DNA of 64,000 bases from Chitinophaga pinensis (GCA_945863035.1 CAMAZH010000001.1:64420-128419), one strand, 5' to 3'; counted from the first letter of the stretch, positions 2 to 47,960 are shown. Made by a program: numbers and translations. Notes: generated by a model not told the origin, from the sequence alone.

Positions 2-3000
2 TTAATTTTTTGAAAATAATTTTTGTATTTCCTGTTCTCCATAATTTATTCTAATAATAAATGTGCCTTTAGCAAAACTGCTGATGTCAATTTGAAACAG
101 CCCTTGTCTTTTTTCATTGGATTGATAGATTGTTTTCCCTGTAATATCTTCAATAATCAGCCGTTTAATATGTATATCTGCCCCATCAACGAATAATACA
201 TTATTTGCGGGGTTTGGGAAGATCTTCATCTCTTTGTTGTTTCGGATATCTTCTGTGCTTGTGGTAATAACAATATATTTTTTTGAAACTGATGCAGCTT
301 CACAATAGATGCTGTCGCCGCTAAGGGATGCTTCCAGCGTAACATTTACTCTGTTAGATAAAAGTACAAGCGTATCCCCATGCATCTCAATATTATTTCC
401 GGTTACTTTGATTATGGGCGTCAGACCAGAGCTTGACGTGATGTTAAAAATAAATTTATTGTCACCCAGCGATGTGGCATTTGCCGGCAGAGTTATAGAT
501 TGTATCAGACATATAGGACTGAGAAATTCACTGCCGATGATTGCATCCATACCGAATGGTGTCACCCATTTCACCGTAAGGTGGTCGTTGCCAAAGCCTT
601 CTTTCATAAGTGCTTCAATATAATAGGAGTGTCCGCCAACGAGTGTTATGGAATCTGATTTCTGTGTGTTAAATTTATCATATTCATATTGCCCGGTCCA
701 TCCGTTATGGTAGGCAATCTTTACTTTATTATAGGTGTCTGTGTCTGAACTTAACCACAACTCTACCTGGTCGTCTCCTGCAATATAGAAAATATAATCT
801 CCGGTATAGGGAGCACAAATGTACCCTCGCAGGCGTACGCCGAAATCATCCTGATTGAATGAGCCTACGTTCATGCTGTTTAGCGTATCGGTTTCGTGTG
901 GGGCAGTGTTTACAGGTATATCAGATACAGCGCTACCTGAGATGTCATTCCACTTCTCCAATGTAATATAGCCGGCAGCATCGGTACATTGGTGGTTTGG
1001 TAGCAATACATTGAATTTCCTCATGACCTTTACTGCTTCGCATGTAGATTCACTCCCGGCTTGAGTGGCTGTGATGCTTACTTTACCTACAATGCCTTCA
1101 AGTGTTACGGTATTTCCTGTCAGGGTCGCCGGTCCGCTGATGCTCAGAGATACAGGTAATCCTTTATCAGATATTGCGTTGATGGTAAAAGGACTGTCAG
1201 TTGCAATTTTATCGGGGATGGTATCAATGGTAATCACCTGTGGTGTGCAGTCATGTATGATGTTAAACGAATCCCGTATTCTTGACGGACATACGTTGAT
1301 ATCGCCGTCCAACGACACCCGGTATTTTACCGTACCTTTCCATCCGGTTAGTGTAATAGTATCCTGGCTTACCGTGGCAGGTCCTGATAGGATTGAATAG
1401 TTTAATAACCATACAGGGTCAGATGAGGCCATTATTTTAAATGGCTCTGCGGAGGATAAGGGATCAGCGATTGGTGTGAACATGATGACAGAGGGCTTAC
1501 AGACTTTCGTTTGGGTGAAGTTCATTTTGTCTATGCTCATGTTTCCTTCAATAATCAGGAGTTGCATTACGTGTATTCCGCTGTCCAGCGTGGCGGTTGT
1601 ATTTACCCTACTCCAGGCACCGGCTGTTTTGTCGAAACTGATCACATCGGCTGTGTCGATGCCATTGTAGATGAATTTTATTTTGTTGTTATCATGATCT
1701 GCTTTGACAACAAGTTCTACATCAAATATCCCTGCACTATTGATAAGCAGGGTATATTCCAACCATTCGCCTGTTACGGTATTGGTAATTGCGTATCCTC
1801 CAGTGTTAATTGTATCAATGTCAGGTCCATCGTGGCGATAAAAACCGTTCAGGTTAATGATGTCAGCATCATGGAATGCCTCACCGGGACAGCCACCATC
1901 ATAGTTTTCGGCTTCGATGGTGCCGGGAAGTTTGTTTGAGGAGAAGGCTGATTGTGGGATATTGCAAACAGGAACACTTATGTTGAGGTAGTCTATAATA
2001 AAACGCGAAGTGTTTTTGTTGGGATCTTTCCAGGGTTCTGCAATGCCTGTTATCAAAGCATTTTGTGTGGAGGAATATATCACATACGACTGAGCGGTCT
2101 GTGACCAGAGGCAGTAGGTAAGGTCGGGTGCCAGTACCAGAATGAATTGTTCTGCTTGTTGTGGTGTGTCTCCTGCAGCCACAAGTTTATCGCCGCTGAT
2201 GGTAATATATTTATTCTGCCCGATAGAGAATAGTGAGTATGTGCCATTTTCATTATCATACAAATAATATTGCTGATCAGCAGCCACGGTTGATGAGATT
2301 GGGTTGAGTGCGGTTGACGAAGCACTTACATTTTTGTTTTGCGACACGCTTTTTATGCTGATGGCTTTAATAACAGGAGGGGGTATTGCACCGGATACTT
2401 CACTGCCGGAGAATTTCCACCAGTTGAAATAGAAACCGCCGGTTTTGAAAACAAAAAACAAGTCATGAATACCGGTCGCACCGCTAACAGCTGTGCTTAT
2501 GGTCTGAAATGATTCATCACCTCCGGTGGCCGGTATATTAATAGTTCCGACAAGAGTACCATTCAGAGAGTCTAAGCGAATCTCAATCTGTCCGTTGCTG
2601 TTTTGAGAAGCCACGCGTGTTTCAACGGTAGTGGCTCCTTCACCAAAATCCACCCCGAAAACTTTTATCCAGTCGTTGTGGTTGATACTTCCCACCTTTT
2701 GTTCATTATAGACTCCATCGTCATTTGTTTTATAAACCTCTATACCCGACTCCCTGCCAATGGTTTCCGCTTCCTGTCGGATAAAAGGGTTGAGGTATTT
2801 TACCTGCTTCAGACCTTCCTGAGTAACTGTCTGGGGCACAAAGGTGCCATCCGGATTGAAATAGATCCGGTCAAGACCAACATTTCTGTGGAATCCACAT
2901 TGGTCGGTCTGATCCGCCAATACCAATCCGTGATATACATTATACCAGTTGCCCTGATAGTTGAAAACAAAAGGTTGTGAGTTGCCACCCGGCGTAAAAC

Positions 3001-3721
3001 CCATAAACCGACCAAAGGGTCCCCCAGGTTCTATGATGGGTCCGGCAGGGGTTTCCAAAAATGTGTAACGATGAAACCATAAGCCCTGCATGGGTTCGGT
3101 AGCCCACATATCTTCATCGCGGAAAGTCTGGTACATATAATAATATTTTCCATTGAAATAACCTAAGTGTGGTGCCTCATAAGAATCTTTCATGGCTGCA
3201 TAGCCACTTTCTTTCTCAAACTCATACATATTTTGTTTTAGCTTCCTCATGTCTCCGCTGGGGAAGGTACACCAAGGGGTACCATCTTCGTCAATCATCA
3301 CGCCGATATCCACCACATGACCGTTCGCCATCAGGCTCCCTCGTTTGTCTTCCCATGGACCAAAGGGAGTGTCAGACTCCACCACGCCGGTTCCTACCAT
3401 CGGCTCACAAAAGTAAATGTAGAACTTGCCATTGTGATGCACGAATTCAGGTGCCCAAAACTGTGAGTTGATATATGGGATGTCCGACGGATGAATAATA
3501 ATCCCATGGTCGGTCCAGTTGAGCAGGTCGTCGGACGAAATCAGGTTGTACCCGCCCATTATCGGGGCACAAGGATCTGTGTCATGCGATGTAAGCATGT
3601 AAACTCTTCCATTATAAACTATTACACTGGCATCTGCAGTGAAACGTTGACTGAAAATAATCCAGTTTGCCTGAACTTGAATTGTGCAGACAAGCAGAAA
3701 CATAAAAATTAAATTTTTCAT
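2..3721 (-). CDS. Secreted multidomain glycoside hydrolase: GH43-like catalytic domain, CBM6-like modules, Ig-like repeats, PA14-like domain, T9SS C-terminal sorting domain
   Basis: ORF 2..3847 trimmed to the ATG at 3719..3721, which gives the signal peptide MKNLIFMFLLVCTIQVQA; the 42 upstream codons are not signal-like. GH43-type motifs: ADASVIVYNGRVYMLTSHD, FWAPEFVHHNGKFYIYF, YEAPHLGYFNGKYYYMY. CBM6-like blocks: NDWIKVFGVDFGEG..IEIRLDS and LPGTIEAENYDGGCPGEAFHD. PA14-like block: GVRLRGYICAPYTGDYIFYIAGDDQVELWL..YYIEALMKEGFGNDHLTVKW. The C-terminal FPNPANNVLFV..GTFIIRINYG matches a T9SS sorting domain. Stop TAA at 2..4. Confidence 0.85.
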   Translation of the reverse strand: MKNLIFMFLLVCTIQVQANWIIFSQRFTADASVIVYNGRVYMLTSHDTDPCAPIMGGYNLISSDDLLNWTDHGIIIHPSDIPYINSQFWAPEFVHHNGKFYIYFCEPMVGTGVVESDTPFGPWEDKRGSLMANGHVVDIGVMIDEDGTPWCTFPSGDMRKLKQNMYEFEKESGYAAMKDSYEAPHLGYFNGKYYYMYQTFRDEDMWATEPMQGLWFHRYTFLETPAGPIIEPGGPFGRFMGFTPGGNSQPFVFNYQGNWYNVYHGLVLADQTDQCGFHRNVGLDRIYFNPDGTFVPQTVTQEGLKQVKYLNPFIRQEAETIGRESGIEVYKTNDDGVYNEQKVGSINHNDWIKVFGVDFGEGATTVETRVASQNSNGQIEIRLDSLNGTLVGTINIPATGGDESFQTISTAVSGATGIHDLFFVFKTGGFYFNWWKFSGSEVSGAIPPPVIKAISIKSVSQNKNVSASSTALNPISSTVAADQQYYLYDNENGTYSLFSIGQNKYITISGDKLVAAGDTPQQAEQFILVLAPDLTYCLWSQTAQSYVIYSSTQNALITGIAEPWKDPNKNTSRFIIDYLNISVPVCNIPQSAFSSNKLPGTIEAENYDGGCPGEAFHDADIINLNGFYRHDGPDIDTINTGGYAITNTVTGEWLEYTLLINSAGIFDVELVVKADHDNNKIKFIYNGIDTADVISFDKTAGAWSRVNTTATLDSGIHVMQLLIIEGNMSIDKMNFTQTKVCKPSVIMFTPIADPLSSAEPFKIMASSDPVWLLNYSILSGPATVSQDTITLTGWKGTVKYRVSLDGDINVCPSRIRDSFNIIHDCTPQVITIDTIPDKIATDSPFTINAISDKGLPVSLSISGPATLTGNTVTLEGIVGKVSITATQAGSESTCEAVKVMRKFNVLLPNHQCTDAAGYITLEKWNDISGSAVSDIPVNTAPHETDTLNSMNVGSFNQDDFGVRLRGYICAPYTGDYIFYIAGDDQVELWLSSDTDTYNKVKIAYHNGWTGQYEYDKFNTQKSDSITLVGGHSYYIEALMKEGFGNDHLTVKWVTPFGMDAIIGSEFLSPICLIQSITLPANATSLGDNKFIFNITSSSGLTPIIKVTGNNIEMHGDTLVLLSNRVNVTLEASLSGDSIYCEAASVSKKYIVITTSTEDIRNNKEMKIFPNPANNVLFVDGADIHIKRLIIEDITGKTIYQSNEKRQGLFQIDISSFAKGTFIIRINYGEQEIQKLFSKN

Positions 3722-3852
3722 TTGCTTTTTATTCTTTAATCCTCCTACGTGTTCTCCTTCGGAGGATGCGAAGGAAGTGGTTAAACTCCCCGATCCTCTG
3801 CATCGGAAATAAAGAGTCCAGAGTTTTACTCCGGGGTTTAATACCATTTATT

Positions 3853-6800
3853 CTATTTCTTAATAATTATTTTTTTAGGAATGATTCCGTCTCCCGTTTT
3901 ACACTTGATAAAATACATTCCGTTTTGTAATTGGCCAAGATCAAGGATTAAAGATTCTGTATTTGTTTGATTTATTTGGTAGACCACTTTGCCCAGCATA
4001 TCGCTAATTGTTATTTCGCTGATCTGCAACTCAAAATTCGAAATATAAAGCACATCTTTTGCCGGGTTTGGGTACATCTGGATTTCCGGGTTCGCATTGG
4101 ATGCTTCTGCGCCGGTTGGTTTGCTGAGGTTGAAAACCTGTAATTTGTCCACTGCCCTGCAATACTCCTCGTCTCCTGCCTGGGAGGCTTTTATGGTGAC
4201 CCTTACCCTTTCTGCATTAATAGTGATTGTATCTCCGTTAAGAGATGCATCTCCGGCTGTTAGTTGGAGTGAAACAGGAAGGCCGGATGAAGAAGAAGAT
4301 TGTAAAAGGAATCTGTTTCCACCCAAAGATGAGAAAGTGGAATTTAAGGTAATGGTTTGTATCTTGCAGGGTAAACTCAGGAACTCACCGGGAATTACCT
4401 CGTTAATGCCGTAAATCGTTGCCCATCTGACAGCCAGGTTATCTCCTCCTGCCCATTCTTTCATAAGTGCTTCAATGTAATATTTTTGGCCGCCGGTAAG
4501 TGCAACAGGTGCCGAGGTCTGCTCAGGAAATTTGTTCCATTGATACTCATCGGCCCAACCAGGAACATATGCGATCCGTTGTTTGTTGGTTTTAGTATCA
4601 TCGGTACTCAGCCAGAGTTCACCGTTATCATCGCTTGCAATGGAGAACACATACTCAGCAGTATAGGGTGCGCACAGGAATCCACTCAGTCTCACACCGT
4701 ATTTATCGCCTGTATTGGTAGGAATCTCCATTTTCGTTAAGGTATTGGTGGTATTGGGAATCTGGTTCAACGGAATACTGCTTATCCCATCGCCTTCAAT
4801 ACCAGTCCACTTTTCCATTAGTATCAAACCCTCCGTTCCGGTACATTGGTGTGCCGGCATTTTAACCATTATGTTAAGGAAGGTATCTTCAACCGGGCAA
4901 TATGCAGCATTTCCCTCTTGCGTGGCATTAAATTTAAGCGTTCCCAGCACACCATCAAGTGTTACAACATTCCCGTTTAGTGTAGCAGGCCCCGACCGTA
5001 TTCCCAGTTCAACAGGTAATCCGGAATTTGCTGTTGCCGTTACAACAAACCCGGGACTGTCTGCAAAAATTGCAGGAAGAGGATTGTAGCTTATAGTCTG
5101 AGCTAAGCAATCGTGAATAATGGTAAACGAGCGTTCTTTGCTGGCGGGACAATACATATCGTTACCCGGTTGGCTTGCCATTACGGTTACACTCCCTTTA
5201 TAATAACTGAGCAGGAGAGTATCTTTGTTAATCGTTGCGGGTCCTGAAACAATACTGAAAAACACCGGCAGTATGGAAGGCACGGATGCATGCAGGCTTA
5301 TCTTTGGAACGCTGGACATGATATCAGGGATTGAATCAAAAACCACACCTTGCGGAGTGCAGGTATCCAGTAGGGAAAATGAAAACCGGTCAAGAAATAG
5401 TCCATTGTCAGCCTGATCAATATTAACCCTCATTAGCTGTTTTCCCGCGTGGAGAATTATCGTGTCGGAAACTGAAATCAGGTTTTGCTTTCCACCTGTA
5501 TTGTTAACCAAGATACTCCTGGTTTTAGTCAAATCATCAAATGAAACATGAAAGGTGTTATTGTCTTTGGCGGCAGCTACAATCATATCGAGTTTGTAAA
5601 TACCTGAAGTATCGGCAAAAATCGTGTATTCAAGCCATTCTCCGCGGGTAATGCTGCTAACCGCATATCCATCAGTGATAGTATCAATATCCACCCCGTC
5701 GTTTCTGAAAAAGCCATCTTCATTTGTGAAAAAAGCATCGCGCCAGGCTTTGCCATGACAGCCATTATCATAGTTTTCAGCTTCAATGATTCCGGGAATA
5801 GTATGTGGATTAAACGATGACTGCTCTTCATCACAGCTTACTGTTAATCCCCATGCATCGAGATCCATGCTGCCGTCAAAAACGATCTTCACAATGTGAT
5901 TGCCTTCAGACAGGTGGATTTTGTTGGATACAAACAGAAATTCCTCAAATTCACCACCGGTTGATGGCAGCTGAAGTATGCCAGTCTCGTCGACACCATC
6001 CACTTCAATATGAAAAGCACCGCTATTGTCTTTTGCATAGGCATAAACAACAGGTGTGTACAATCCTTCGGATGCAGCAAAAACAGAATACGCCAGCCAT
6101 TCACCGGCAGAAGTATTGCCAATGGAAATTCCTTTATTGTCAGGTAGATAGTCCATATCTACAGCATCGTTTCTGTACTGATATGCCCAGCCGATATGTT
6201 TTGTGGTATTGTCGTGGAATCCATTTCCTTCGCCGCCGTTGTTATAGTTTTCTGCTTCAATTATTCCGGGGAGGTTATATGGAACGCCGCCGAAGGCCGA
6301 TTGATCCTGAAGTTCCGAAAAACGGTAACTCAATCTGGTTTGGGGTGCAGCATCACCGTTTTCCCAGAAGTCCATGGCTGTTGGGTTGGCCGATAAACAA
6401 TTGTCGCTCCATTTAAAGTCGAAAGCCAGAGAAGTCTGATTCATCCCCAGCATGATTCTGGGAATTGATATTTCGAGTTCATTTCCCGCTGTTTTAAAAA
6501 TCCCATTTGATACCTGGCTCCAGTTGCCGTTATCATAAGCATCTATTGAACAATTAACACCATCGCGTAAGTAATTGATGCGCAAATCATAGCCTTCCCA
6601 TCCGGTGTTTTTTCTTCTGTCAGTATCAATAAACAGAACCATCCATTGCGAGTCGGTTGACGGAGAGAGTGCAGCTTTGGTTTTTACATAAAAGAAAACA
6701 TTTTCCGGGTTAAAGGCAGCGCGACTTTCTATTATGTCGTTTCGTGCAGTATTGTTTTTATACCATAGAATTTCTTTCGTACCTTCTATATATGTTGGAT

Positions 6801-8226
6801 TACCGCGGAAATCCCTGTTTGAAATGTCGTCCGGAGCATCCAGGTAAACAGGTTTCACTTCAGCCCATTCGGTGAAAGAACCGTCAATAATAATTTCTGT
6901 TGGTCCATTTGGCATTTCCGGTCGCGTCATACCTTTATGGATGCGCAGGTGACCAGCTGTTTGCCAGTAATAGTTATCTTTATACAGGTCTTTCATGGGT
7001 TCGAGGTCACCGGAGAATTCAGGATTGAACATATCAATAAATACCCCTTCGCCCTTGTCCGCATTTACTGGTTTCCCCAACCAGTTCATGTTGGTTTCCC
7101 TCCAACAGGCGGCCCACCATTCATTGTATCGTGCTGCAAGAACCATAGGAGCACCCGAGGCATGCGCATTATTCCAGTCTCTTTCGTTTCGCAAACCCTT
7201 GTCCACATCGGGAGTAAGCCACCGACTGTTGTAGTTTGAAATGTCAAGATTGTAACCCTCAACGCTTGTCGTTCCTTTAGTTTGTAGCCCATCGAAAATC
7301 GGGGCTCCAACCGCTTTACCCGTTCCATAGCATTCAATATTCCCAGCCAGGTCATAAGCGGGGAATGTGCCCCAGGTGTTCCATACGTGTTTCCATTCAG
7401 GTTGTGTTCCGGGCATATCAAAGATTACCCGGAAGGTGAAAATTTCCTTGAATTTACGAAGCAGGGCAGGGTCACTGAACTTCGTGGAATCAAGGTCTTT
7501 GGTATAACCAACTCTAAATCCAGGGGTTGTATTGGGCATGCTTCGGTCGAGTCCGGCCATAATATGTACCATAGGTCTGTCCTGATAATAGAATAGCATA
7601 TTATCGTATTTATGGTCTTTATAAATCAGGTTATAGCAAAACTCCATAGATTGTTCAATATCGGTACTTAACCAGATAGATATTCGGGGAACAGGAACAC
7701 CTTGATTCTGGAGTTCAGTGCCTATTTCCAGGTATTGTTTCAATATAGCCCAGTTCTCGCTTTCTGAAGGGTTCCAGTTATTCCATCCTCCTCCACCATT
7801 GGTGAAATCCCAAAAAACATATTCAAAACCGGCAGTTCCCATGTCAACCAATTGCTTTCGGATAACCCATGGGTCAGCCCCATGATAGTAACCACACCAT
7901 GGCTCGGCCCACGACCAGTTTGGATAAATCAGACTCCCGGCAGGATCAAACTCAAACCGTCGGTTAAAAGGATTGTTGGTTAAAAATTTGTTTACATCGT
8001 AATAATTGCCAATGCGATTGTTCCAGCCGGGAAACGCGCTGAACAGTGTTCCAAACCAACGGTCTTCCCTTGGCGCGCCTGCTTCAGCCCATGTAGGCAG
8101 ATGGCGACCCAGCATATCGGTTCCTACGGTGCCTGTCCATGGAATCACTTGCGCAGGAGTGGATTTCTGCCCATATATTGCTGAACATGCAACAAAAAAC
8201 AAAGAGATTAAAAATGTTCTAGCCAT
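3853..8226 (-). CDS. Secreted multidomain protein: unassigned GH-like N-terminal region (paralogue of 25145..26923 and 39838..41685), two CBM6-like modules, Ig-like repeats, PA14-like domain, T9SS sorting domain
   Basis: Signal peptide MARTFLISLFFVACSAIYGQ. Residues about 20-640 share colinear motifs with the 592-aa and 615-aa proteins: ADPWVIRKQL..FWDFTNGG, FNPEFSGDLEPM, ARNDIIESR..LFIDTDRRKNTGWEGYD, GDAAPQTRLSY. CBM6-like: GIIEAENYNNGGEGNGFHD and GIIEAENYDNGCHGKAWRD. PA14-like: GVRLSGFLCAPYTAEYVFSIASDDNGELWL..YYIEALMKEWAGGDNLAVRW. Sorting domain: MYPNPAKDVLYIS..GMYFIKCK. Confidence 0.85.
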   Translation of the reverse strand: MARTFLISLFFVACSAIYGQKSTPAQVIPWTGTVGTDMLGRHLPTWAEAGAPREDRWFGTLFSAFPGWNNRIGNYYDVNKFLTNNPFNRRFEFDPAGSLIYPNWSWAEPWCGYYHGADPWVIRKQLVDMGTAGFEYVFWDFTNGGGGWNNWNPSESENWAILKQYLEIGTELQNQGVPVPRISIWLSTDIEQSMEFCYNLIYKDHKYDNMLFYYQDRPMVHIMAGLDRSMPNTTPGFRVGYTKDLDSTKFSDPALLRKFKEIFTFRVIFDMPGTQPEWKHVWNTWGTFPAYDLAGNIECYGTGKAVGAPIFDGLQTKGTTSVEGYNLDISNYNSRWLTPDVDKGLRNERDWNNAHASGAPMVLAARYNEWWAACWRETNMNWLGKPVNADKGEGVFIDMFNPEFSGDLEPMKDLYKDNYYWQTAGHLRIHKGMTRPEMPNGPTEIIIDGSFTEWAEVKPVYLDAPDDISNRDFRGNPTYIEGTKEILWYKNNTARNDIIESRAAFNPENVFFYVKTKAALSPSTDSQWMVLFIDTDRRKNTGWEGYDLRINYLRDGVNCSIDAYDNGNWSQVSNGIFKTAGNELEISIPRIMLGMNQTSLAFDFKWSDNCLSANPTAMDFWENGDAAPQTRLSYRFSELQDQSAFGGVPYNLPGIIEAENYNNGGEGNGFHDNTTKHIGWAYQYRNDAVDMDYLPDNKGISIGNTSAGEWLAYSVFAASEGLYTPVVYAYAKDNSGAFHIEVDGVDETGILQLPSTGGEFEEFLFVSNKIHLSEGNHIVKIVFDGSMDLDAWGLTVSCDEEQSSFNPHTIPGIIEAENYDNGCHGKAWRDAFFTNEDGFFRNDGVDIDTITDGYAVSSITRGEWLEYTIFADTSGIYKLDMIVAAAKDNNTFHVSFDDLTKTRSILVNNTGGKQNLISVSDTIILHAGKQLMRVNIDQADNGLFLDRFSFSLLDTCTPQGVVFDSIPDIMSSVPKISLHASVPSILPVFFSIVSGPATINKDTLLLSYYKGSVTVMASQPGNDMYCPASKERSFTIIHDCLAQTISYNPLPAIFADSPGFVVTATANSGLPVELGIRSGPATLNGNVVTLDGVLGTLKFNATQEGNAAYCPVEDTFLNIMVKMPAHQCTGTEGLILMEKWTGIEGDGISSIPLNQIPNTTNTLTKMEIPTNTGDKYGVRLSGFLCAPYTAEYVFSIASDDNGELWLSTDDTKTNKQRIAYVPGWADEYQWNKFPEQTSAPVALTGGQKYYIEALMKEWAGGDNLAVRWATIYGINEVIPGEFLSLPCKIQTITLNSTFSSLGGNRFLLQSSSSSGLPVSLQLTAGDASLNGDTITINAERVRVTIKASQAGDEEYCRAVDKLQVFNLSKPTGAEASNANPEIQMYPNPAKDVLYISNFELQISEITISDMLGKVVYQINQTNTESLILDLGQLQNGMYFIKCKTGDGIIPKKIIIKK

Positions 8227-35918: not shown

Positions 35919-35929
35919 GATTAGTAATC

Positions 35930-38548: not shown

Positions 38549-38551
38549 AAA

Positions 38552-39841: not shown

Positions 39842-41685
39842 TTTTCAATTTTGCTTTTTGCAATATAGTGATAATTAAACCTTCTGTCCGGTGCTGATTC
39901 ACCATTCAGAAAGAAAGCGCTGATGTCTTTCAAATCGGCCGGATTATCAGCCCAATGGAAATAGAAATCAGGTAAAGCAGAAATGCCAATACTTTTCTTT
40001 GGAATACTGATTTCCATTTCTGTGCCTTTCATTCTGAAACTTCCTGTTCCGGTTTTTTTCCAATCTTTCCCGCTCCACGATTTGACACTTGTTTTTTCTC
40101 CATCTTTTTTGCCATAATTGATTACATAATCATAGCCTTCCCAACCTGTTTTTTGATCCTTATCAGAATCGATGAATAAAAGCATCCAATTCTGGTCTTG
40201 GCAGGAAGTAAGGCCATTGGCTGTTCTTACATAGAAATAGATATTTTCTTCATCGAAGGTGACTTTTGAGTTGGTAATGTCGTTGCGACCGGAAGTGTTT
40301 ACCAGTATTTCGCTGTTATTCACGTTCATAAAATTACGGTGCTGGCAATCACCTTCGGGATCAATGAAATCGGGAGCAACATCATTCCATTCCGAAAAAG
40401 CCCCATCAATTATGATTGTTTTTGCAGGGGAGGCGGACTCTTGTTTGCTCAAACCTTTAAACTTTCTGATATGCGAAACCATCTGGTAATAATACGCATC
40501 AGTGTAACCGCCTGTCATAGGTTCAATATCCCGATTGAACTCCATGTTGAATTCATCAACAAAAAACCATCCGTGGGGAATATGGTTACCGAGCGAGTCT
40601 TTTGAAAGGCAAATGGCCTGGTTGACACATCGCCACGAAGGATCGTTCCATTGTTTGCGCATAAAAGGATGCGGGGCATTGGCTGATGAAGGCCAGGCTG
40701 CGGCCGTGAGTTCATTCCAGCCGGTAATGCAGATAATTTGTGGATTTACTTCATGTGCCCTTGCCCATTGTTCTTCAAAAAAATTTCCTTGCGGCGTTTG
40801 ATCACTTAACCAATATTTGTCATATGGAGGAGTATAGCTGGTTGTCGAGCTTGATCCTTGCAATTCAGCATTCCATAGTGGAGACCCCATCGATTTTGTA
40901 ACTGAAATCTGCTCAGCAATCCCGTTACGGAAAAAGGCATCCTGGGGAACACTGTCGAGGAAGTTCCACTGTTTGGGTTCGAATGCCCACGTATAGCGCC
41001 AGGTAAACATGTTCTGAACCAATTCCTCCCTGCAACGTTCACATTGTTTTTTGCATTTTTCGCCACTTGCCATGATCAGGGGTTTGCCTTCCCACATAAA
41101 AATAAGTGGGTTATATTCAGGTTTGTTGTAAAAGTTATCCAATAAGCAGTTCATGGCAGCGTTGTAGCCTTCATTCAGAAAGAAAACAATTTTGGGAACA
41201 GGAATTTTTTGCTTATGCATTTCGAGCGCAACAGTCATAAAATTGCTGAGGGATTTGCAGCCCTGATCGCCGTTGGTAAAATCAATAAAGATGAAGTCAA
41301 CACCGGCATTGGCAAGCATTTGAAGATTTCTGCGGGTGCTCCAGGGATCAGAAGGGTGGTAGAATCCGTTTTCAGGCTCGCACCAATAATAATCCGAACA
41401 TTCAAAGGCGGGACTTTCAGGGTTTTCGTTAATCAGTTCCTGCACTATCTTTTGTTTTCCGTCTTTTAAACGCACATAAGGATGCCAGAGCCAGTAGAAT
41501 ACCCCGATGTATTTATCCGGTTTGGATTCGTCCGATTCAATATATGTCGGGAGAACTCTCCCAAGTCCGTCAGTGGCAACCCAATTGTCGCTGTATGCCT
41601 TAATTGGGGGAGTATTCTGGCCACATATCAGCCTGGCCGAAAACAGTAGTATTATGGCAGAAAGTAATGATAAATTCTTTTTCAT
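39838..41685 (-). CDS. Secreted protein of the same unassigned GH-like family as 25145..26923
   Basis: Signal MKKNLSLLSAIILLFSARLICGQ. Shared motifs: SDNWVATDGLGRVLP, IGVFYWLW, WCEPENGFYHPSDPWSTRRNLQMLANAGVDFIFIDFTNG, ITGWNE, EFNRDIEPM, SGRNDITNSK..LLFIDSDKDQKTGWEGYDY, GESAPDRRFNY. Confidence 0.8.
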   Translation of the reverse strand: MKKNLSLLSAIILLFSARLICGQNTPPIKAYSDNWVATDGLGRVLPTYIESDESKPDKYIGVFYWLWHPYVRLKDGKQKIVQELINENPESPAFECSDYYWCEPENGFYHPSDPWSTRRNLQMLANAGVDFIFIDFTNGDQGCKSLSNFMTVALEMHKQKIPVPKIVFFLNEGYNAAMNCLLDNFYNKPEYNPLIFMWEGKPLIMASGEKCKKQCERCREELVQNMFTWRYTWAFEPKQWNFLDSVPQDAFFRNGIAEQISVTKSMGSPLWNAELQGSSSTTSYTPPYDKYWLSDQTPQGNFFEEQWARAHEVNPQIICITGWNELTAAAWPSSANAPHPFMRKQWNDPSWRCVNQAICLSKDSLGNHIPHGWFFVDEFNMEFNRDIEPMTGGYTDAYYYQMVSHIRKFKGLSKQESASPAKTIIIDGAFSEWNDVAPDFIDPEGDCQHRNFMNVNNSEILVNTSGRNDITNSKVTFDEENIYFYVRTANGLTSCQDQNWMLLFIDSDKDQKTGWEGYDYVINYGKKDGEKTSVKSWSGKDWKKTGTGSFRMKGTEMEISIPKKSIGISALPDFYFHWADNPADLKDISAFFLNGESAPDRRFNYHYIAKSKIEK

Positions 41686-41751: not shown

Positions 41752-44700
41752 TCACTCCCCCCTGATTACTTCTATCTCTGCCAGTTGCATCGCATATTTT
41801 CCGAAATACCTGGTTTTTCTGAGTTTGTGGGCTTCAATTTTTATGTACCGTACCGGTTGAGGAGTTATGCTGAATTGTTCAGGTCCGGTAATATCTTTTG
41901 GCTTTTGCTCTGTAAATTGTATTTCAGAAGCGGGATTCATGTAATCCTCCCTTTGTGCAACCTGAGTCCAGTCTATACCATTAACGGATACTAAAATAGT
42001 GAAAGAATGAGGAAAACCGTCGAATGACTGATCGATTTCCCTTGAATTCACAAATGGCTCACTGCAATGCGTATGCTGCCATGCGTCGCCATGATCCAGC
42101 GGCCAAAGGTCAATACGTTTTACCTTCACCGGCTCCTCCAAATCAATCTGCACCCATTCTGTATGAAAGGCATCTTCATGCAGATCGCTGGTCCATCCGC
42201 GATGTCCTGCGCGGGTATTAATTCTTGTGCCATCGGTTAGTTTTTCTACTGACCAGTTTGGTATTTGATTTGTAAAAACATCAGCAATCCCTTCCAGCCT
42301 TGCTAGCTCGGACATTTTTACATTGTCCATAAGTCCATTGTTTTCTTCAGGCATGAAATCGCTGGAAGAAGTAACGGGTTTATATAAAGCAGCATTCCAG
42401 TAGGGCAGGGAAGAAGGCAAAGATTCGACTGGTGAAATCCGGTAAATTATTCCCGGCTTTGTTTCAAATGTATAAACCTGACCGTAAAAAGTATCTTCCA
42501 GGATGCTTTCTGGAATATTTCCAAACTGATCAGTAATTCTAATCGTATTGAACTGCCAGGGATTCAAAACTTTACAGACTCTTCCATTTTCGCTGAATAT
42601 AGAAAAAGGCTGAATAACTCCATTCTTCTTAACAGCATTAACAAGGAAAGCACCTGTTGTCCTGAGTTTTTGGAAACCGGCGTCAGGTAGATGCCAGCAG
42701 GGAAACAGGCGAATAAACCCTTCATGACTTTGAAGAAGCATACTGTTTATCGATTCAACTATTGAGGTGCCTTCTGTGTTGCTTCCCCCGCTTTTAAAAT
42801 TGCTTATCCCGAGTCCGGAATAATAAGTTTTAAACCGTTCCAGAATTTCAGGTGGATGGTGCGCAAGCCGGGCGGCAATGGAAAATATCTGCGTAGGGTT
42901 GTTCATCCATTCGACATAGTATTGAGGTTTAATTATAAGCGTATTTCGTGCAGTATTTAACAATGAAGGACTGGAACTCATTGTAACCTGCTCTGTTGGA
43001 AAAACCGGGTAAAGAATCCAATCTTGTTCGGTTAGCAATGGATTCAACGATTCTTCGCTCCAGGCAAATACTTTTCTGCCATAAGCGTAGCTCAAAGGAT
43101 ATTCGCTCATGTGAAGAAGAAAATCCTTCCATTGGGCAATTTCTTTTTCCCCATAACCAGTGTCGAATCCTTCCGCATTGAGTTCATTAGTAATTTCGAT
43201 CATCGATTTATAAAACCTCTGCAGAAACGCAATTCCGGTGATCCCATTGAACTTGTCATTTCCTGCCCCTTCCATTGGAGCGCTGTTTACAACAACATAC
43301 CTGTAATTCCCATTTAGACTTACTTCCTTGTTTTTCAGTAAATCATAGTCCCAGTAATCGGCAACATCCTTCAGAAAATCATAATTATTTTTCATCCAGT
43401 TAATGTCATAAGTGTAATACCAGTGATTAATCTGATTTAAGGAGGCTTCCACTGCATGGGTACGCTGATCTATTGTCTGGGCTTCATTCAGGTGCCCGGG
43501 AGCAGTAGCTACAAAGAAAACAGTTCCCGGTAATCCCAGTTTCGCTGCATGTCGACGGCCGAAAACATTTGATTCGTTCACAGTGCGGTCATAAGGTTCG
43601 GAAAGTTCTACCCTGTTGGAAGAGAAAGCCCCGTAATACGTGGCCTGATTGTTATAATTCCAATGGTAATCGCCTCCCCATGGAACCATATCATTAACAG
43701 GCCATCCGTTGCATGCGGCCGGCCATTGTCCGGGTTTATTAGCACATGCGAAAACGTAAAGAGCTCCATAGTACACCCTTTCAACCAGATGCTCATCTTT
43801 TAAATCAATAAATGATTTGTTCCAATATGCTGACCACCAGACTCTGTGTTCGGCGATAATTCTTTCAATGGATAATTCATCCAAAGTTTTCAGATCTTTG
43901 AGTAAAGCGGGAACAGGATTTTCGGGATTCATGGTAATGGGTAGTCCTGTAGAATGAACTTTTGTTATGATGAATCTTTTTTCACCGGGCAATAAGGTGA
44001 ATGTTGATGTAGTATTGACATTCTGATTGCCCGGTTCATAGCTCCAGTTGTTTTTTAATGTAATGTTTTCTGTTTTTCCAAAAATACGTGTGCCAACTGC
44101 AGCCCACATTCTGAATTCCCTGCTTCCATAATCATCATGTGCAGGGGGAACATTGGTTTTACGGCTTACCCAGGCAACCGGACTCTGACTTCCGGTTTTT
44201 CCTGCCTGAATTTCAAATGGATTTGTTTTAATACGGTATTGATCTGTGACCGTCTCCACAACAACAGAGACAATTCTTATACCTGTATTTGATATTTCAT
44301 TGATCAGATAATTATCAGCAGGATGAGGGGTGATGGATCGTATTTCGATCGATTCATCACCTTGTGTTAAAGAAGTTTTAACTTCTGCAAACCTTAGGTT
44401 CTGGGTTTGTCTAAAGCTAGTGTTTATTAACGATGGAAAACTTATCCGCAGGTATCCCGGAAGTACATTGGCACTCTGCCAGCCATCGTTTTCCGGCTCA
44501 TTGCATTTATCGCGCCAGAAATCAGTTTTACCCAGGAAAAAAGTAAGGCTGTTAGATGTGCTGCCGGTTGTAATCATCAGGCATCCATTACCCATTACAG
44601 GCGAATGATCCATGGTGAAAAACCCTCCTTCAGCTATTTTCGGAGCACTAATGGTCATGCTGCAGCGATCAAGTATCGATTCGACTGTATTTGACTGACC

Positions 44701-44811
44701 GAAGGCAACTGGAACGCAAAAGAAGGATATCAATAAGCAAAGCAAGGCCGAGTCCCTGCTGATGCTTATTAGATGGAACTTTGAAACTCCGGTGAAACTG
44801 GATCGGTTCAT
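41752..44811 (-). CDS. GH95-like glycoside hydrolase with C-terminal discoidin (F5/8 type C, CBM32-like) domain
   Basis: The N-terminal block SPVMGNGCLMITTGS..LTFFLGKTDFWRD resembles the GNG..lWs block of the GH95 N-terminal domain. WGGDYHWNYNNQATYYGAFSSNRVELSEP resembles the GH95 catalytic-domain block W..y..NiNlQMnYW..n..E. The C-terminal region WNAALYKPVTSSS..KLTDGTRIN..WVQIDLEEPVKVKRIDLWP is discoidin-like. The family call is from memory of motifs and is moderate. Confidence 0.6.
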   Translation of the reverse strand: MNRSSFTGVSKFHLISISRDSALLCLLISFFCVPVAFGQSNTVESILDRCSMTISAPKIAEGGFFTMDHSPVMGNGCLMITTGSTSNSLTFFLGKTDFWRDKCNEPENDGWQSANVLPGYLRISFPSLINTSFRQTQNLRFAEVKTSLTQGDESIEIRSITPHPADNYLINEISNTGIRIVSVVVETVTDQYRIKTNPFEIQAGKTGSQSPVAWVSRKTNVPPAHDDYGSREFRMWAAVGTRIFGKTENITLKNNWSYEPGNQNVNTTSTFTLLPGEKRFIITKVHSTGLPITMNPENPVPALLKDLKTLDELSIERIIAEHRVWWSAYWNKSFIDLKDEHLVERVYYGALYVFACANKPGQWPAACNGWPVNDMVPWGGDYHWNYNNQATYYGAFSSNRVELSEPYDRTVNESNVFGRRHAAKLGLPGTVFFVATAPGHLNEAQTIDQRTHAVEASLNQINHWYYTYDINWMKNNYDFLKDVADYWDYDLLKNKEVSLNGNYRYVVVNSAPMEGAGNDKFNGITGIAFLQRFYKSMIEITNELNAEGFDTGYGEKEIAQWKDFLLHMSEYPLSYAYGRKVFAWSEESLNPLLTEQDWILYPVFPTEQVTMSSSPSLLNTARNTLIIKPQYYVEWMNNPTQIFSIAARLAHHPPEILERFKTYYSGLGISNFKSGGSNTEGTSIVESINSMLLQSHEGFIRLFPCWHLPDAGFQKLRTTGAFLVNAVKKNGVIQPFSIFSENGRVCKVLNPWQFNTIRITDQFGNIPESILEDTFYGQVYTFETKPGIIYRISPVESLPSSLPYWNAALYKPVTSSSDFMPEENNGLMDNVKMSELARLEGIADVFTNQIPNWSVEKLTDGTRINTRAGHRGWTSDLHEDAFHTEWVQIDLEEPVKVKRIDLWPLDHGDAWQHTHCSEPFVNSREIDQSFDGFPHSFTILVSVNGIDWTQVAQREDYMNPASEIQFTEQKPKDITGPEQFSITPQPVRYIKIEAHKLRKTRYFGKYAMQLAEIEVIRGE

Positions 44812-44843: not shown

Positions 44844-47800
44844 CTAATTCTCTACCGGAATAACCTCAATTCCGGAAACACAGGGAAATCCTTTAATTTC
44901 ATCAAAGGCAATGTTAATATAACCGTCCGTCACCTCGATATTCTTCAGTTGTTTAGCATGAGCTTTTCTGAAACCTGCCTCTTTGTGGATGTCCAATCCC
45001 GAAATCATTTTCTTACCTTCAACTGATACATCAAAAACCCGCTCATTGTCTTTGTCTGTTTCCAGCTCAGAAAAATACAGGTTAACATCGTACGTTCCGT
45101 TTAACACCTCAAAATAGTAATAGAGCTTTGTTGTGTCGCAGGTAGTGAACTGCCAATTCAGCAAATATTCAGCATTGGGATATTCGATTTTAGCTACTGT
45201 TCTCGTGTCGCAGCGTTTTCTGCAGCTCTGGAAAATTTCATTGCCGCTGGATCCGGTAATTGTTGATTCCGTTATGAAGTGGTTTCCAAAATCAAATCCG
45301 TAATCAGGCATCCATTCCACATTATTATTGTCCACATAATAATCTCCACCGGCGTTGATGCGGATAATCCCCTGTTCATATTTTTTACCGGTCACAAATA
45401 TTTCTTTCATTTGCCTGAAATCTTCCGATGAACTTCCAGCCATTAATTGAAACTTACCGGTTTCTACAATAAAGTCATTTTGTTTTATATCCCAGAAGGC
45501 CATTTCTTTTGCGGGGAAAGAAAAACTAACCGTTTTTGTTTCGCCGGGTTCTAAAGAAATCTTTTCGAACCGGATCAGTTTTTTCAGGGGAGTTTTAACA
45601 GATGATTCCATATCGTTGTAATACAATTGGACTACTTCAGAGCCTTTAACCGTACCCGAATTTTTCAAATCGAGGCTTAGTAGAATTGTATCATGGGCAT
45701 TATAGGTTTCCTTGCTTGTATTAATATTGCTGTATTCAAATTTTGTATAGCTGAGTCCGAACCCAAAAGGAAATAGAACTTCATCCTCGAAATACAGGTA
45801 GGTTCGGTTATGCAGTCTGTGACGGTAATTTGTAAATGGGGGCAACTGGTCAACAGATTTATACCATGTCATAGGAAGTTTACCACCGGGATTGAAGTTT
45901 CCAAACAATACATCAGCAACAGCCGTTCCCTGCGTTTGTCCGGCGAACCAGGCTCCAGCAATTGCCGGGATGTTTTCCTTTTCCCAGTCGATGATCAGGG
46001 GAAAACCGACAGCCATGACCAATATTACATTAGGATTGACCTCGTAAACTCTTTGAAGCAATTCTCGCTGTATACTTGGAACATTGAGGTTAGCAGGATC
46101 GAGGCCTTCATTTGCCACTGTCAGATCAGTGCCATAAACAAAAATGACCTGTTCACTTTCGCAGGCGATTTTGATCGCTTCATCAAAACCCGAAATATCA
46201 TTTCCGATAACATTAGAACCCCTTGCATACTTAACAGTTACAGCAGTTTTAGTGGGCGTGTAGTTCTCTTTTTCAGGAATGAAAACGAATGACTCAAGAT
46301 TAAATAAAATACCATCTCCCCCTTTTACGGAAAAGTATATATCATGAATCCCACTGCTTTTTTTCAGGGAGGTTGTTATTGTTTTAAGGTTTTTCATATC
46401 GCCGGTATCTTCAACCTTCACAATCCCGATCAACTTACCTTTTTTACTATCCAGGCGGATTTCAATGATGCCGCCTGCACCTTTACATGCTGCAATAGTT
46501 TGGATTGCTCTGGTGCCGTTTGCCAGATCGATGTCTTTGAACATGAGCCAGTCGCCATCCTTAATCTCAAGCACATGAAGCCGGCCGTCCTCACTGGTGT
46601 TTTGCTTTTCAAATGAGCTGAAATCAACAATTTTGGTAATGTAACTCCCCTGATAGAATCGCTCAGCTTTTAATTTTTGGAATCCGTCCTGTGCTGCACC
46701 TGTAAGGTACCGGATTCCCTGTAAAATAGTTACAGCCTGGTTAGGGAAACCAGTATATCCTCCATATTCGGGTTCTTCTGCTTTTATCCCGATAACTGCA
46801 ATAGATTTGATTTTATCTTTATTTAGGGGCAGGGTGTTATTCTCATTTTTCATCAGCACGATCGATTCTCTGGCAATTTCCAAAGCAAGATTCTGATGTT
46901 CTGAACAATTCAGAAGACTGTCAGGATAATTACGATAAGGAACATTTTCTTTTGGATCCAGATCACCCAACATAAACCGGGATTTTAAAACCCGTTTTAG
47001 GGCAAGGTCAATATCTTCTTCTTTCAGGTAGCCCTTTTCGAAAGTTGATTTAAGATATTTACTGTAATAATCGCCGCAATTCAGGTCAGTTCCTGCAGCG
47101 ATGGCAAGCTGAACGGCTTTTTCATTTTCAGTAACATAATACTGCCGATTTACGATATCTGAAACGGCCCAGCAGTCTGACACAACATACCCATTGAATC
47201 CCCACTCATCCCTGAGCACTTTATTCAGAAGCCATTTATTGGCACAATTAGGGATGCCATTAAGCCCACGATAAGTACACATGATGGATACCGACTTTGC
47301 TTCCTTAACGGCTGCCTCAAAAGCAGGCATATAATATTCACGAAGATCACGCATATCCGTGAAGGATGATGATATACTCCTTTGAAATTCTGAATTATCA
47401 GCGACGAAATGCTTTACGGTCGCAACTGCCTGCAGATAATCCGGATTATTTCCCTGTATCCCTTTTACAAATGATACGCCCATTCTGGCAGTGAGATACG
47501 GATCTTCACTGTATGCCTCTTCAGTTCGTCCCCAGCGCGGATCACGAGCAAGATTAATTGTTGGACTGAAATAGGTCAGACCTTTTCCGGATTGATTATT
47601 AAAAACCCTTGCCTCGACACCGATAACATTTGCCATTTTCCGGATAAGTTCGGGATTCCAGGTGCTTCCGAGTCCGATTACCTGCGGAAAAACTGTTGCC
47701 TCCTTCCAGCGGGCCACTCCATGAAGAGCCTCGCTCCAGTATCCCCACTGTTTCAGGCCTAAGCGAGGTATAGCAACTGCATCAAAATGCAACTGGCTGA

Positions 47801-47960
47801 TTTTTTCATCAATTGTCATTCGCGCTACCAGGTCATCAATTCGTTGATCTGATGAAAGGGCAGTGTTCTGATAGGGGGAATCATTTTGTGCATGAATGCT
47901 TAACGCGAAAGACAAAATGACAATATTCAAGGCGATTTTTTTTATAATAATTCTTTTCAT
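44844..47960 (-). CDS. GH3 beta-glycosidase with an inserted CBM6-like module and a C-terminal malectin-like domain
   Basis: Signal MKRIIIKKIALNIVILSFALSIHAQ. GH3 motifs: YWSEALHGVARW, VKHFVADNSEF, GFNGYVVSDCWAV (nucleophile Asp context). Inserted block: KDGDWLMFKDIDLANGTRAI..GIIEIRLDSKKGKLIGIVKV..GIHDIYFSVKG. C-terminal region: IRINAGGDYYVDNNNVEWMPDYGF..VFDVSVEGKKMISGLDI. Confidence 0.88.
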   Translation of the reverse strand: MKRIIIKKIALNIVILSFALSIHAQNDSPYQNTALSSDQRIDDLVARMTIDEKISQLHFDAVAIPRLGLKQWGYWSEALHGVARWKEATVFPQVIGLGSTWNPELIRKMANVIGVEARVFNNQSGKGLTYFSPTINLARDPRWGRTEEAYSEDPYLTARMGVSFVKGIQGNNPDYLQAVATVKHFVADNSEFQRSISSSFTDMRDLREYYMPAFEAAVKEAKSVSIMCTYRGLNGIPNCANKWLLNKVLRDEWGFNGYVVSDCWAVSDIVNRQYYVTENEKAVQLAIAAGTDLNCGDYYSKYLKSTFEKGYLKEEDIDLALKRVLKSRFMLGDLDPKENVPYRNYPDSLLNCSEHQNLALEIARESIVLMKNENNTLPLNKDKIKSIAVIGIKAEEPEYGGYTGFPNQAVTILQGIRYLTGAAQDGFQKLKAERFYQGSYITKIVDFSSFEKQNTSEDGRLHVLEIKDGDWLMFKDIDLANGTRAIQTIAACKGAGGIIEIRLDSKKGKLIGIVKVEDTGDMKNLKTITTSLKKSSGIHDIYFSVKGGDGILFNLESFVFIPEKENYTPTKTAVTVKYARGSNVIGNDISGFDEAIKIACESEQVIFVYGTDLTVANEGLDPANLNVPSIQRELLQRVYEVNPNVILVMAVGFPLIIDWEKENIPAIAGAWFAGQTQGTAVADVLFGNFNPGGKLPMTWYKSVDQLPPFTNYRHRLHNRTYLYFEDEVLFPFGFGLSYTKFEYSNINTSKETYNAHDTILLSLDLKNSGTVKGSEVVQLYYNDMESSVKTPLKKLIRFEKISLEPGETKTVSFSFPAKEMAFWDIKQNDFIVETGKFQLMAGSSSEDFRQMKEIFVTGKKYEQGIIRINAGGDYYVDNNNVEWMPDYGFDFGNHFITESTITGSSGNEIFQSCRKRCDTRTVAKIEYPNAEYLLNWQFTTCDTTKLYYYFEVLNGTYDVNLYFSELETDKDNERVFDVSVEGKKMISGLDIHKEAGFRKAHAKQLKNIEVTDGYINIAFDEIKGFPCVSGIEVIPVEN

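Follow-up and report, generated by a model that had tools for sequence, protein, structure and literature searches.

A probable SusD-less glycan-utilization cluster with a conserved pairing of TonB-dependent receptor and type IX-sorted partner genes in an uncultured Bacteroidales bacterium

Can a long run of glycan-degrading genes that has a TonB-dependent receptor but no SusD be a glycan-uptake locus, and which gene occupies the place next to its receptor? The question is raised by a 64,000-nucleotide stretch of DNA deposited under the name Chitinophaga pinensis (GCA_945863035.1, CAMAZH010000001.1:64420-128419; hereafter the window), in which 16 co-directional open reading frames (ORFs) of 429 to 1457 amino acids (aa) run along the minus strand from 47960 to 2, while the plus strand carries five ORFs from 48589 onward and then a sixth that crosses the right window edge. 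An earlier note made from the sequence had described the 16 genes as one mega-locus resembling a polysaccharide utilization locus (PUL), and the ORF layout bears out their shared direction. We labeled the genes g01 to g21 in coordinate order and determined the domain content of all 21 proteins with Pfam and NCBIfam. With a probability of roughly 70%, we interpret the 16 genes as a SusD-less glycan-utilization cluster made of several transcription units and probably controlled by a hybrid two-component system (HTCS), whose core is a receptor of the TonB-Xanth-Caul type (g04) and a beta-helix partner protein (g03) sorted by a type IX secretion system (T9SS). The nearest relatives of the window proteins come from uncultured Bacteroidales metagenome-assembled genomes (MAGs) labeled Paludibacter, Draconibacterium, and Prolixibacteraceae, many from lakes or sediment, and the host of the cluster is an uncultured Bacteroidales bacterium. 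Such a cluster is nothing unusual among environmental Bacteroidota; what is noteworthy is the conserved pairing of receptor and T9SS partner, together with enzyme families that have no annotation.

The receptors and their partner genes

None of the 21 window proteins matched a SusD family (PF07980, PF12741, PF12771, or PF14322) at E ≤ 1e-3. Receptor A, g04 (10164..13124, minus strand), and receptor B, g19 (54204..57179, plus strand), both have a Bacteroidota-type CarboxypepD_reg N-terminal extension and a plug, followed in g04 by the barrel. The SusC/RagA model TIGR04056 gave g04 81 bits and g19 106 bits against a cutoff of 368, covering only residues ~27 to 176 (about the first 150 aa). For TIGR01782 (TonB-Xanth-Caul, cutoff 310), g19 scored 330.6 bits across model positions 1 to 868, above the cutoff, and g04 scored 277.9 bits over its full length, slightly under it. 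Judged by these profiles, the receptors are of the TonB-Xanth-Caul type and not SusC/RagA. The adjacent SusC-like/SusD-like pair that marks a canonical PUL in PULDB is absent, and a T9SS beta-helix gene follows each receptor instead. The label of a PUL-like mega-locus holds insofar as this is a glycan-utilization cluster, but the 21 proteins include no SusC/SusD pair and the genes are probably not one operon. Since PUL prediction tools, and much of the glycobiology of Bacteroidota, take the SusC/SusD pair as their marker of glycan import, loci of this type are invisible to them.

The genes directly 3′ of the receptors, g03 (partner A, 8389..10089, minus strand) and g20 (partner B, 57276..58967, plus strand), encode proteins of ~565 aa and are separated from the receptor genes by 74 and 96 nucleotides (nt), respectively, when likely starts are used. 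The sole domain recognizable in either by Pfam or NCBIfam is the T9SS C-terminal domain (CTD; PF18962 and TIGR04183), and the fold assigned to g03 is taken from a model of g20. A scan of 185,579 species genomes, in which each GTDB species was represented once, brought up 527 stretches that encode a partner relative; we examined the best 80, and single loci and contigs are cited below by L numbers. A span of at least 3.3 kb upstream of the partner made 62 loci testable. In 56 of them a g04/g19 homologue on the same strand has its end no more than 600 nt upstream (median gap ~130 nt). The receptor is also present in five of the remaining six, with one or two genes inserted: a second partner-like gene (L020), other T9SS proteins (L012 and L032), a 423-aa ORF (L017), or a 528-aa ORF (L038). 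L020 has two partner genes behind one receptor. Tandem cassettes occur in L031, L039, L041, and L074, and the fragmented matches in the last three suggest frameshifts or pseudogenes in long-read MAGs. One MAG contig (L004 and L025) resembles the window in having both cassette types, A and B, inside a span of 54 kb. In a test for cosegregation of receptor and partner types across loci, the receptor A/B scores were near ties (31/66 agree).

The cassette is found in Bacteroidales, Cytophagales (Cyclobacteriaceae/Roseivirgaceae), and Ignavibacteria/Melioribacteraceae, mostly in MAGs from freshwater, sediment, and digesters. A receptor, partner, and GH99/71-like gene also lie together on a contig binned as "Candidatus Micrarchaeota archaeon" (L061, CAZBLA010000045.1), which is almost certainly a misbinned bacterial contig. 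Within 10 kb downstream of the cassette (n = 57 loci), a gene related to glycoside hydrolase (GH) families 99 and 71 is present in 23/57, GH106 in 11/57, and either in 30/57. Three neighborhoods annotated with Pfam illustrate the setting: one reads HTCS, receptor, partner, GH78-like, GH20, GH78, GH106; a second reads extracytoplasmic function (ECF) sigma factor, anti-sigma factor, STN-domain receptor, partner, GH78-like, GH2, GH106, and a T9SS protein with a carbohydrate-binding module (CBM6-PA14-T9SS); and a third reads GH106, GH43-CBM6, receptor, partner, GH78-like, CBM6-PA14-T9SS, CotH-T9SS. In one locus (L083, 4946..9838) an STN-domain receptor lies 3′ of ECF sigma and FecR-type anti-sigma genes and no HTCS is found there; with this ECF sigma control, the cassette is wired to both of the classic PUL regulatory schemes. 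It is mainly because the cassette co-occurs with PUL-style regulators and rhamnosidase families that we read the receptor as a glycan importer and propose a rhamnose-containing substrate. We found no description of a receptor/T9SS-partner cassette in the open-access literature; a 2026 review of glycoside transporters makes no mention of type IX secretion, and a 2024 review of the T9SS draws no link between its cargo and TonB-dependent importers.

At 90% identity the partner family falls into at least 284 clusters, all of them labeled "hypothetical" or "T9SS sorting domain protein." With the partner body alone as query (lacking signal peptide and CTD), 450 clusters at 50% identity were recovered at E ≤ 1e-3 and 37 at E ≤ 1e-30. 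All 40 aligned members have the CTD, and a Pfam model covers the body in 0/40. Ten more distant relatives likewise all have a T9SS CTD; six of the ten match PF13229 (Beta_helix), two of these with CBM35 or CBM6 as well. The AlphaFold2 model of g20 (predicted local distance difference test score [pLDDT] 89.3, predicted template modeling score [pTM] 0.80) consists of a right-handed parallel beta-helix (residues ~25 to 300), a helix-rich subdomain with many invariant Trp residues (300 to 480), and the CTD. In a Foldseek search against the PDB, its best matches were alginate lyases of polysaccharide lyase (PL) family 6 (E = 5e-5, ~270 aligned columns, TM score on the query 0.30, 12 to 17% identity). 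Conservation is higher in the body than in the CTD, with invariant D117, D193, H226, and K233 among the asparagine-ladder positions. With respect to the catalytic Lys/Arg that goes with a Ca2+ site in PL6, the alignment has an invariant K233 but no conserved Arg one coil later, and the fold match is partial. Sequence and profile searches of the partner against the PDB and Pfam returned no lyase or hydrolase and nothing significant beyond the CTD. The remark in the earlier note that there was no obvious GH28 or PL is accurate for GH28 and for any sequence-level PL, but the two receptor-adjacent T9SS proteins are nearest to PL6 by fold. We also considered a likeness to phage tailspikes or endorhamnosidases and set it aside as unsupported, as a Foldseek search against viral structures returned only the CTD and weak, generic beta-helix depolymerases.

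Is the partner an enzyme at all? It may instead be a noncatalytic surface glycan-binding protein or "lid," analogous to SusD/SusE, or a released shuttle that captures glycan. Its strictly conserved place after the receptor would suit such a role, as would the lack of a sequence-level PL or GH match, the absence of GH88/GH105 nearby, and the C-terminal subdomain rich in invariant Trp. Set against this are the four invariant residues on the beta-helix, the fact that the nearest folds are lyases, and the general experience that a beta-helix protein encoded in a glycan locus tends to be an enzyme. We regard a noncatalytic partner as the most serious of the alternatives considered here, although still an unlikely one.

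The gene array and its divergent neighbor

Read from its first gene downward, the minus-strand array opens with g16 (44844..47960), a GH3 enzyme with inserted CBM6, Fn3-like, and malectin domains by Pfam and NCBIfam. It continues with g15 (41752..44811), a divergent GH95-family protein with a sub-threshold F5/8-type-C match; g14 (39838..41685), a GH99/GH71-like protein placed by paralogy and 39% identical to g08; g13 (38552..39841), a 429-aa protein; g12 (35930..38548), which by Pfam joins two GH43 domains (an internal repeat with 25% identity over 279 aa) to CBM6/35 and a T9SS CTD; g11 (33075..35918), a GH2 enzyme related to the BT4151-type exo-beta-1,4-galactosidase, with a lipobox signal peptide; g10 (30657..32864), from an uncharacterized 735-aa family; g09 (27080..30634), of the GH106 alpha-L-rhamnosidase family, also with a lipobox signal peptide; and g08 (25145..26923), a GH99/GH71-like TIM barrel with a CBM9-like beta-sandwich, identified by profile and structure. 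Next comes the HTCS regulator g07 (20881..24951), followed by g06 (16805..20464), with an uncharacterized N terminus of ~680 aa, three Big_2 domains, a weak CBM6, and a T9SS CTD; g05 (13197..16691), in which Pfam finds PA14, CHB_HEX_C/Fn3_assoc, CotH, two lamin-tail domains (LTDs), and a T9SS CTD; the cassette itself; g02 (3853..8226), in which Pfam and paralogy to g08 and g14 reveal an N-terminal GH99/GH71-like domain of ~640 aa followed by two CBM6/35 domains, PA14, and a T9SS CTD; and g01 (2..3721, with a longer ORF to 3847), in which Pfam and NCBIfam find GH43, two CBM6/35 domains, PA14, and a T9SS type-A CTD. The earlier note had passed over the HTCS, the receptor, the CotH/LTD protein g05, and the beta-helix protein g03 among these 16 genes, and neither the three GH99/71-like copies nor the 735-aa family of g10 had been picked up.

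Some of these proteins share parts. The ~650-aa C-terminal module of g01 and g02 (CBM6/35, PA14, linker, and T9SS CTD) is 40% identical between the two and stands behind unrelated catalytic domains; it resembles a stalk that could be reused for display or binding. The PA14 domain of this module resembles that of g05 (47% over 98 aa). The combination of CotH-kinase fold, lamin-tail domains, PA14, and T9SS CTD seen in g05 has a second copy beyond the window, where it closes the plus-strand locus (L001, 19093..21692), and a third in a Draconibacterium-like contig (L085, 19616..21746); among the 80 genome loci as summarized, none showed a g05 homologue, and we know of no role for CotH in glycan loci. 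Homologues of g06 lie 3′ of the partner gene in L063 and L076.

Are the 16 genes one transcript? The tiny spacers of the earlier note are exact: an overlap of 4 nt at 39838..39841 and gaps of 3 nt at 38549..38551, 5 nt at 3848..3852, 11 nt at 35919..35929, and 22 nt at 30635..30656. For g01, the trimmed start at 3721, which widens the gap to 131 nt, is the likelier one because Met43 is the first residue of the Sec signal peptide in the long ORF (MKNLIFMFLLVCTIQVQA). Our terminator scan recovered the two hairpin sites of the note as the only minus-strand ones in the intergenic DNA of the array. One, between g06 and g05 (16763..16794), has a 14-pair stem and a T-rich tail; the other, between g08 and g07 (25084..25105), has a 9-pair stem followed by TTTTTT. 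Total numbers of terminator-like sites are at chance level (19, 23, and 22 versus 18.3, 18.1, and 15.7 expected), so it is the position of the two array hairpins and not their number that matters. With 3721 as the g01 start, a weak 7-pair hairpin with a poor T-tail (3834..3818, minus strand) would also fall into the spacer that separates g02 from g01; it may be due to chance. Six array spacers measure 113 to 416 nt, and the Bacteroidetes −7 motif TAnnTTTG occurs upstream of g16 (−76), g07 (−53), and g02 (−137 and −80). A sigma-70 promoter scan of the window gave results at chance level, the model being unsuited to Bacteroidota, and an Rfam scan of the window found no RNA families. Because of the two hairpins, the wide gaps, the embedded HTCS gene, and the TAnnTTTG motifs, a single transcript is unlikely, and the transcription units are most likely g16 to g08, g07, g06, g05 to g03, and g02 to g01. 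The lowest GC content in the window (0.335 to 0.37, versus 0.39 to 0.45 elsewhere) is found in the regulator regions at 20001..26000 and 48001..54000.

The plus strand repeats part of this inventory. It begins with a second HTCS regulator, g17 (48589..52722), divergent from the array; in both g07 and g17 Pfam finds the complete domain set of Reg_prop/Y_Y_Y sensor, HisKA, HATPase, REC, and AraC HTH. Then come g18 (53139..54080), an AraC-family regulator with cupin and helix-turn-helix domains according to domain scans, receptor B, partner B, the GH106 enzyme g21 (59313..62591) with its lipobox signal peptide, and a 726-aa uncharacterized gene of which the window holds only the start (62608..64000) and which has no NCBIfam match. 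We read the genes past the right edge from the 145.5-kb metagenome contig of which the window is part (ENA ERZ27280308, k141_256685), whose gene table (L001) lists, 3′ of the 726-aa gene, one gene for GH43-CBM6 and another of the CotH/LTD/T9SS kind. Across the two strands the receptors are 57% identical, the partners 51%, the HTCS proteins 29%, and the GH106 enzymes 29%. Since receptor and partner are paralogous and are followed by GH106, the 726-aa gene, GH43-CBM6, and a second CotH/LTD/T9SS gene, the plus-strand set (g17 to g21 and what lies downstream) is, by its gene content, a partly paralogous sister locus divergent from the array. A candidate paralogy of the 726-aa gene with g10 was rejected, as only one 24-aa motif aligns (E = 0.004). 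The regulator g18 sits between g17 and g19, and homologues 52 to 61% identical to it occur within a few kilobases of the cassette in L026, L030, and L042, directly upstream only in L030; from these homologues near cassettes, the plus-strand cassette may have a second regulator of a monosaccharide type.

If the array is divided, it could also be a mosaic, in which an enzyme block (g16 to g08) and a receptor block (g05 to g01) are independent neighboring systems for different glycans that face the same way only through genome organization. A hairpin and the regulator gene do separate the blocks, and the cassette is accompanied elsewhere by varying enzyme sets. However, GH99/71-like domains occur on both sides of the divide (g02 versus g08 and g14), as do GH43-CBM6 proteins (g01 versus g12), GH106 adjoins the plus-strand cassette, and in L025 a GH3 gene, an HTCS gene, the receptor, partner A, and a g02-like gene are contiguous on one strand. 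On balance, we think it improbable that the blocks serve separate glycans.

Export, enzymes, and substrate

The seven T9SS sorting domains reported for the window all score above the curated cutoffs of PF18962 and TIGR04183, and seven proteins combine such a CTD with an N-terminal Sec signal peptide, as type-A cargo does. The partner profile also matches the CTDs solved in the T9SS translocon of Flavobacterium johnsoniae (8glj and 8glk). The T9SS core genes lie outside the window. Under a strict lipobox rule (PROSITE PS51257 type, with a Cys after the n-region and h-region), three of the four signal peptides previously noted for their Cys pass (g09, g11, and g21); g10 does not, having Glu at −2, and its Cys21 is a marginal case, while its closest homologues have a lipobox Cys at the same position. 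The N terminus of g02 (8185..8226) passes the rule as well (FFVA-C14) yet the protein bears a T9SS CTD, and a "YG-Q" site of the signal peptidase I type lies five residues on. In 15 exported proteins (g02 to g08, g12 to g17, g19, and g20) the signal peptide ends with a small residue and Gln comes next (e.g., SA-QD, HA-QN, and FG-QS). This "Q-rule" is the pattern of Bacteroidota signal peptidase I substrates. The four Cys-bearing proteins lack the Gln pattern, which supports the split between signal peptidase I and signal peptidase II substrates. The proposal of two export routes thus stands as a distinction between T9SS and lipoprotein or periplasmic proteins, but the count comes to three classes: seven T9SS proteins, three or four with a lipobox, and the rest signal peptidase I substrates, nearly all with Gln at +1. 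The accompanying division of labor, with endo-acting or binding proteins on the T9SS route and exo-enzymes as lipoproteins, is not established, since three of the T9SS-borne catalytic domains belong to GH43, a mostly exo-acting or debranching family.

The carbohydrate-active enzyme (CAZyme) calls made earlier agree with Pfam and NCBIfam throughout: GH43 three times (g01 and twice in g12), GH106 twice (g09 and g21), GH95 (g15), GH2 (g11), and GH3 (g16). For GH43 (PF04616), g01 scores 100.7 bits and g12 328.7 bits in two domains; for GH106 (PF17132, gathering cutoff 29), g09 scores 652 bits and g21 756 bits. The GH95 assignment of g15 (PF22124, 58 bits, gathering cutoff 27) concerns a very divergent protein with weak GH95 matches in the PDB, the best at E = 4.5e-9 over 83 residues. 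Against models of single characterized enzymes the scores are low: g09 reaches 276 bits with NF049897 (BT4145 type, cutoff 1300), g21 also falls below the BT4145 cutoff, and g11 reaches 793 bits with NF049890 (BT4151 type, cutoff 1500).

Three further domains belong to a family that these models miss. The first ~640 aa of g02 and the proteins g08 and g14 are paralogues with 29 to 39% identity (g02 versus g08 or g14, 29% over ~620 aa, E = 1e-75 to 1e-79). Relatives of these domains number more than 2,700; many of them, like g02, are fusions with CBM6/PA14/T9SS modules. One of the NCBI records bears the name "GH71/99," and we found no description of the family in the open-access literature. g08 and g14 match no Pfam or NCBIfam model, including GH99 PF16317, which is found only in a few distant homologues, and the sequence of g14 matched nothing significant in the PDB. 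The family profile matches the Bacteroides GH99 endo-alpha-mannosidase 4acy at E = 2e-4, with the motifs "PE.G.Y...DP" and "NEW" in common; of the NEWHEG catalytic Glu residues, the first is kept (E327) and the second aligns with Ala. The predicted structure (pLDDT 85) has a TIM barrel that matches GH99 and GH71 (Foldseek E = 1e-6, TM score ~0.5 on the target) and a CBM9-like beta-sandwich. Profile and model together suggest that g08, g14, and the N terminus of g02 are uncharacterized hydrolases of the GH99/71 clan that fall outside GH99 proper.

Two more array proteins remain difficult to place, and neither g10 nor g13 has a significant relative in the PDB by sequence. The g10 family includes at least 295 hypothetical proteins from several phyla and gave only sub-threshold hints of GH127, GH76, and PL10; we did not rely on a PL10 pectate lyase assignment, for which the family profile match is marginal (E = 0.005). 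g13 scores 31.1 bits against DUF4185 (PF13810, gathering cutoff 39.5) and thus falls below the threshold for that family, which we take to be an endo-D-arabinanase family.

What glycan might these enzymes target? The branched-glycan substrate proposed earlier is plausible as far as rhamnose is concerned, given that GH106 occurs twice and GH106 and GH78-like genes recur in related loci, but nothing narrower is supported. To judge from enzyme families, the glycan targeted is probably a branched heteroglycan that contains rhamnose. A pectin system directed at rhamnogalacturonan-I (RG-I) with arabinan or galactan side chains, in which the partner would be a rhamnogalacturonan lyase, would account for the best NCBIfam matches of the GH106 and GH2 enzymes (BT4145 and BT4151 of the Bacteroides thetaiotaomicron RG-I PUL), for the GH43 domains, and for a partner beta-helix fold like that of PL1, PL3, PL6, and PL9. 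Yet GH28, GH105/GH88, PL1/9/11, and carbohydrate esterase families CE8/12 are all absent from the 21 window proteins and from the three annotated related loci, the GH106 and GH2 equivalog scores reach only 20 to 50% of their cutoffs, and the recurrent companion of the cassette is the GH99/71-like family, which has no known pectin role. Because no GH28, GH105/GH88, or known PL is present and the equivalog scores are this low, a pectin-specific reading is weak, and we consider it quite improbable. Least probable of all is co-transcription of the 16 genes as a single operon of the canonical PUL type, which would fit the shared direction, the many tiny spacers, and the presence of an HTCS and a TonB-dependent receptor but not the missing SusD, the failure of the receptor on the SusC/RagA model, the two intergenic hairpins, the six spacers of 113 to 416 nt, the mid-array regulator, or the −7 motifs at g16, g07, and g02.

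We return to a SusD-less cluster of several units and hypothesize that it works as follows. T9SS cargo at or beyond the cell surface would bind and fragment the polymer, namely the beta-helix partner, g02, g01, g12, g06 with its Big_2 domains, and g05 with its CotH domain. The partner, encoded at the gene position usual for SusD, would capture or cut glycan beside its receptor, and the receptor would import the resulting oligosaccharides. Lipoprotein and periplasmic exo-enzymes (GH106, GH2, GH3, the GH95-like protein, g08, g14, g10, and g13) could then complete degradation, with the HTCS sensing a periplasmic product. Several points weigh against this interpretation. A coupling between receptor and partner, be it physical or functional, is deduced from gene order only. 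The likeness of the partner to PL6 is a partial one at the level of a predicted fold, with no lyase signature in the sequence, and neither the locus nor the three annotated related loci contain the GH88/GH105 gene that a lyase route needs. T9SS type-A cargo may be surface anchored or released, two fates that sequence cannot distinguish. The boundaries of the predicted transcription units depend on hairpins, gaps, and one short promoter motif, and the specificities of the enzymes are uncertain because their equivalog scores are so far below cutoff (276/1300 and 793/1500).

A bolder version, which we offer as speculation and think rather unlikely to hold in full, is that receptor and T9SS-anchored partner are joined in a surface complex of their own. 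The Fibrobacteres-Chlorobi-Bacteroidetes (FCB) group would then have a third architecture for capturing and importing glycans, besides SusC/SusD and the partner-less carbohydrate utilization loci with TonB-dependent transporters (CUT loci). In this third architecture T9SS cargo rather than a lipoprotein would feed or cap the transporter, and the GH99/71-like proteins would be a new GH family with the same, probably rhamnose-rich, polymer as substrate. The presence of the cassette in hundreds of species of Bacteroidales, Cytophagales, and Ignavibacteria points to an unrecognized and widespread route of polymer uptake in anoxic environments. The partner, GH99/71-like, and g10 families, all three large and without functional annotation, are candidate new carbohydrate-active families, and the cassette suggests a connection of T9SS cargo with TonB-dependent import that can be tested.

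Comparison with known systems

The cluster resembles a canonical Bacteroidota PUL in that its CAZyme genes group with those for a TonB-dependent importer and an HTCS, in the CarboxypepD_reg N-terminal extension of the receptor, in its lipoprotein and periplasmic exo-enzymes, and, in one related locus, in control by ECF sigma and anti-sigma factors with an STN-domain receptor. It departs from that plan in having no SusD and a receptor that fails the SusC/RagA model, and in placing after the receptor a T9SS-sorted beta-helix protein where the canonical PUL has an alpha-helical lipoprotein. Among characterized PULs, the RG-I PUL of B. thetaiotaomicron (BT4145 to BT4183) gives its names to the best equivalog models for g09 and g21 (GH106) and g11 (GH2), but with scores at 20 to 50% of the cutoffs, with no GH28, GH105, or PL9/PL11 here, and with a different architecture of export and import.

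For the GH99/71-like proteins, the closest comparison is with the GH99 endo-alpha-mannosidases/mannanases and the GH71 alpha-1,3-glucanases, with which they share the TIM-barrel fold and an N-E-W motif containing one GH99 catalytic Glu; set against these enzymes, the family shows only ~15% identity, does not conserve the second Glu of NEWHEG, and has an extra CBM9-like C-terminal domain.

A partnership between type IX secretion and TonB-dependent uptake has a precedent in the chitin utilization locus of F. johnsoniae, in which the T9SS-secreted ChiA works with SusC/SusD-like importers. There, as here, a T9SS-secreted depolymerase is encoded with TonB-dependent importers and periplasmic enzymes, but the chitin locus keeps its SusC/SusD pairs, whereas in the present cassette SusD is absent and a T9SS gene is fixed 3′ of the receptor across phyla. 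Import without SusD, in turn, recalls the CUT loci of Xanthomonas and Caulobacter, which combine a TonB-dependent transporter, CAZymes, and a regulator and have no SusD (cited in PMC13543919). The receptor barrels of the cassette belong to the same NCBIfam subfamily, TIGR01782, and here too there is no SusD. The CUT Proteobacteria have no T9SS, whereas the cassette described here occurs in Bacteroidales and Ignavibacteria hosts, with a Bacteroidota-type N-terminal extension on the receptor and a conserved T9SS partner behind it.

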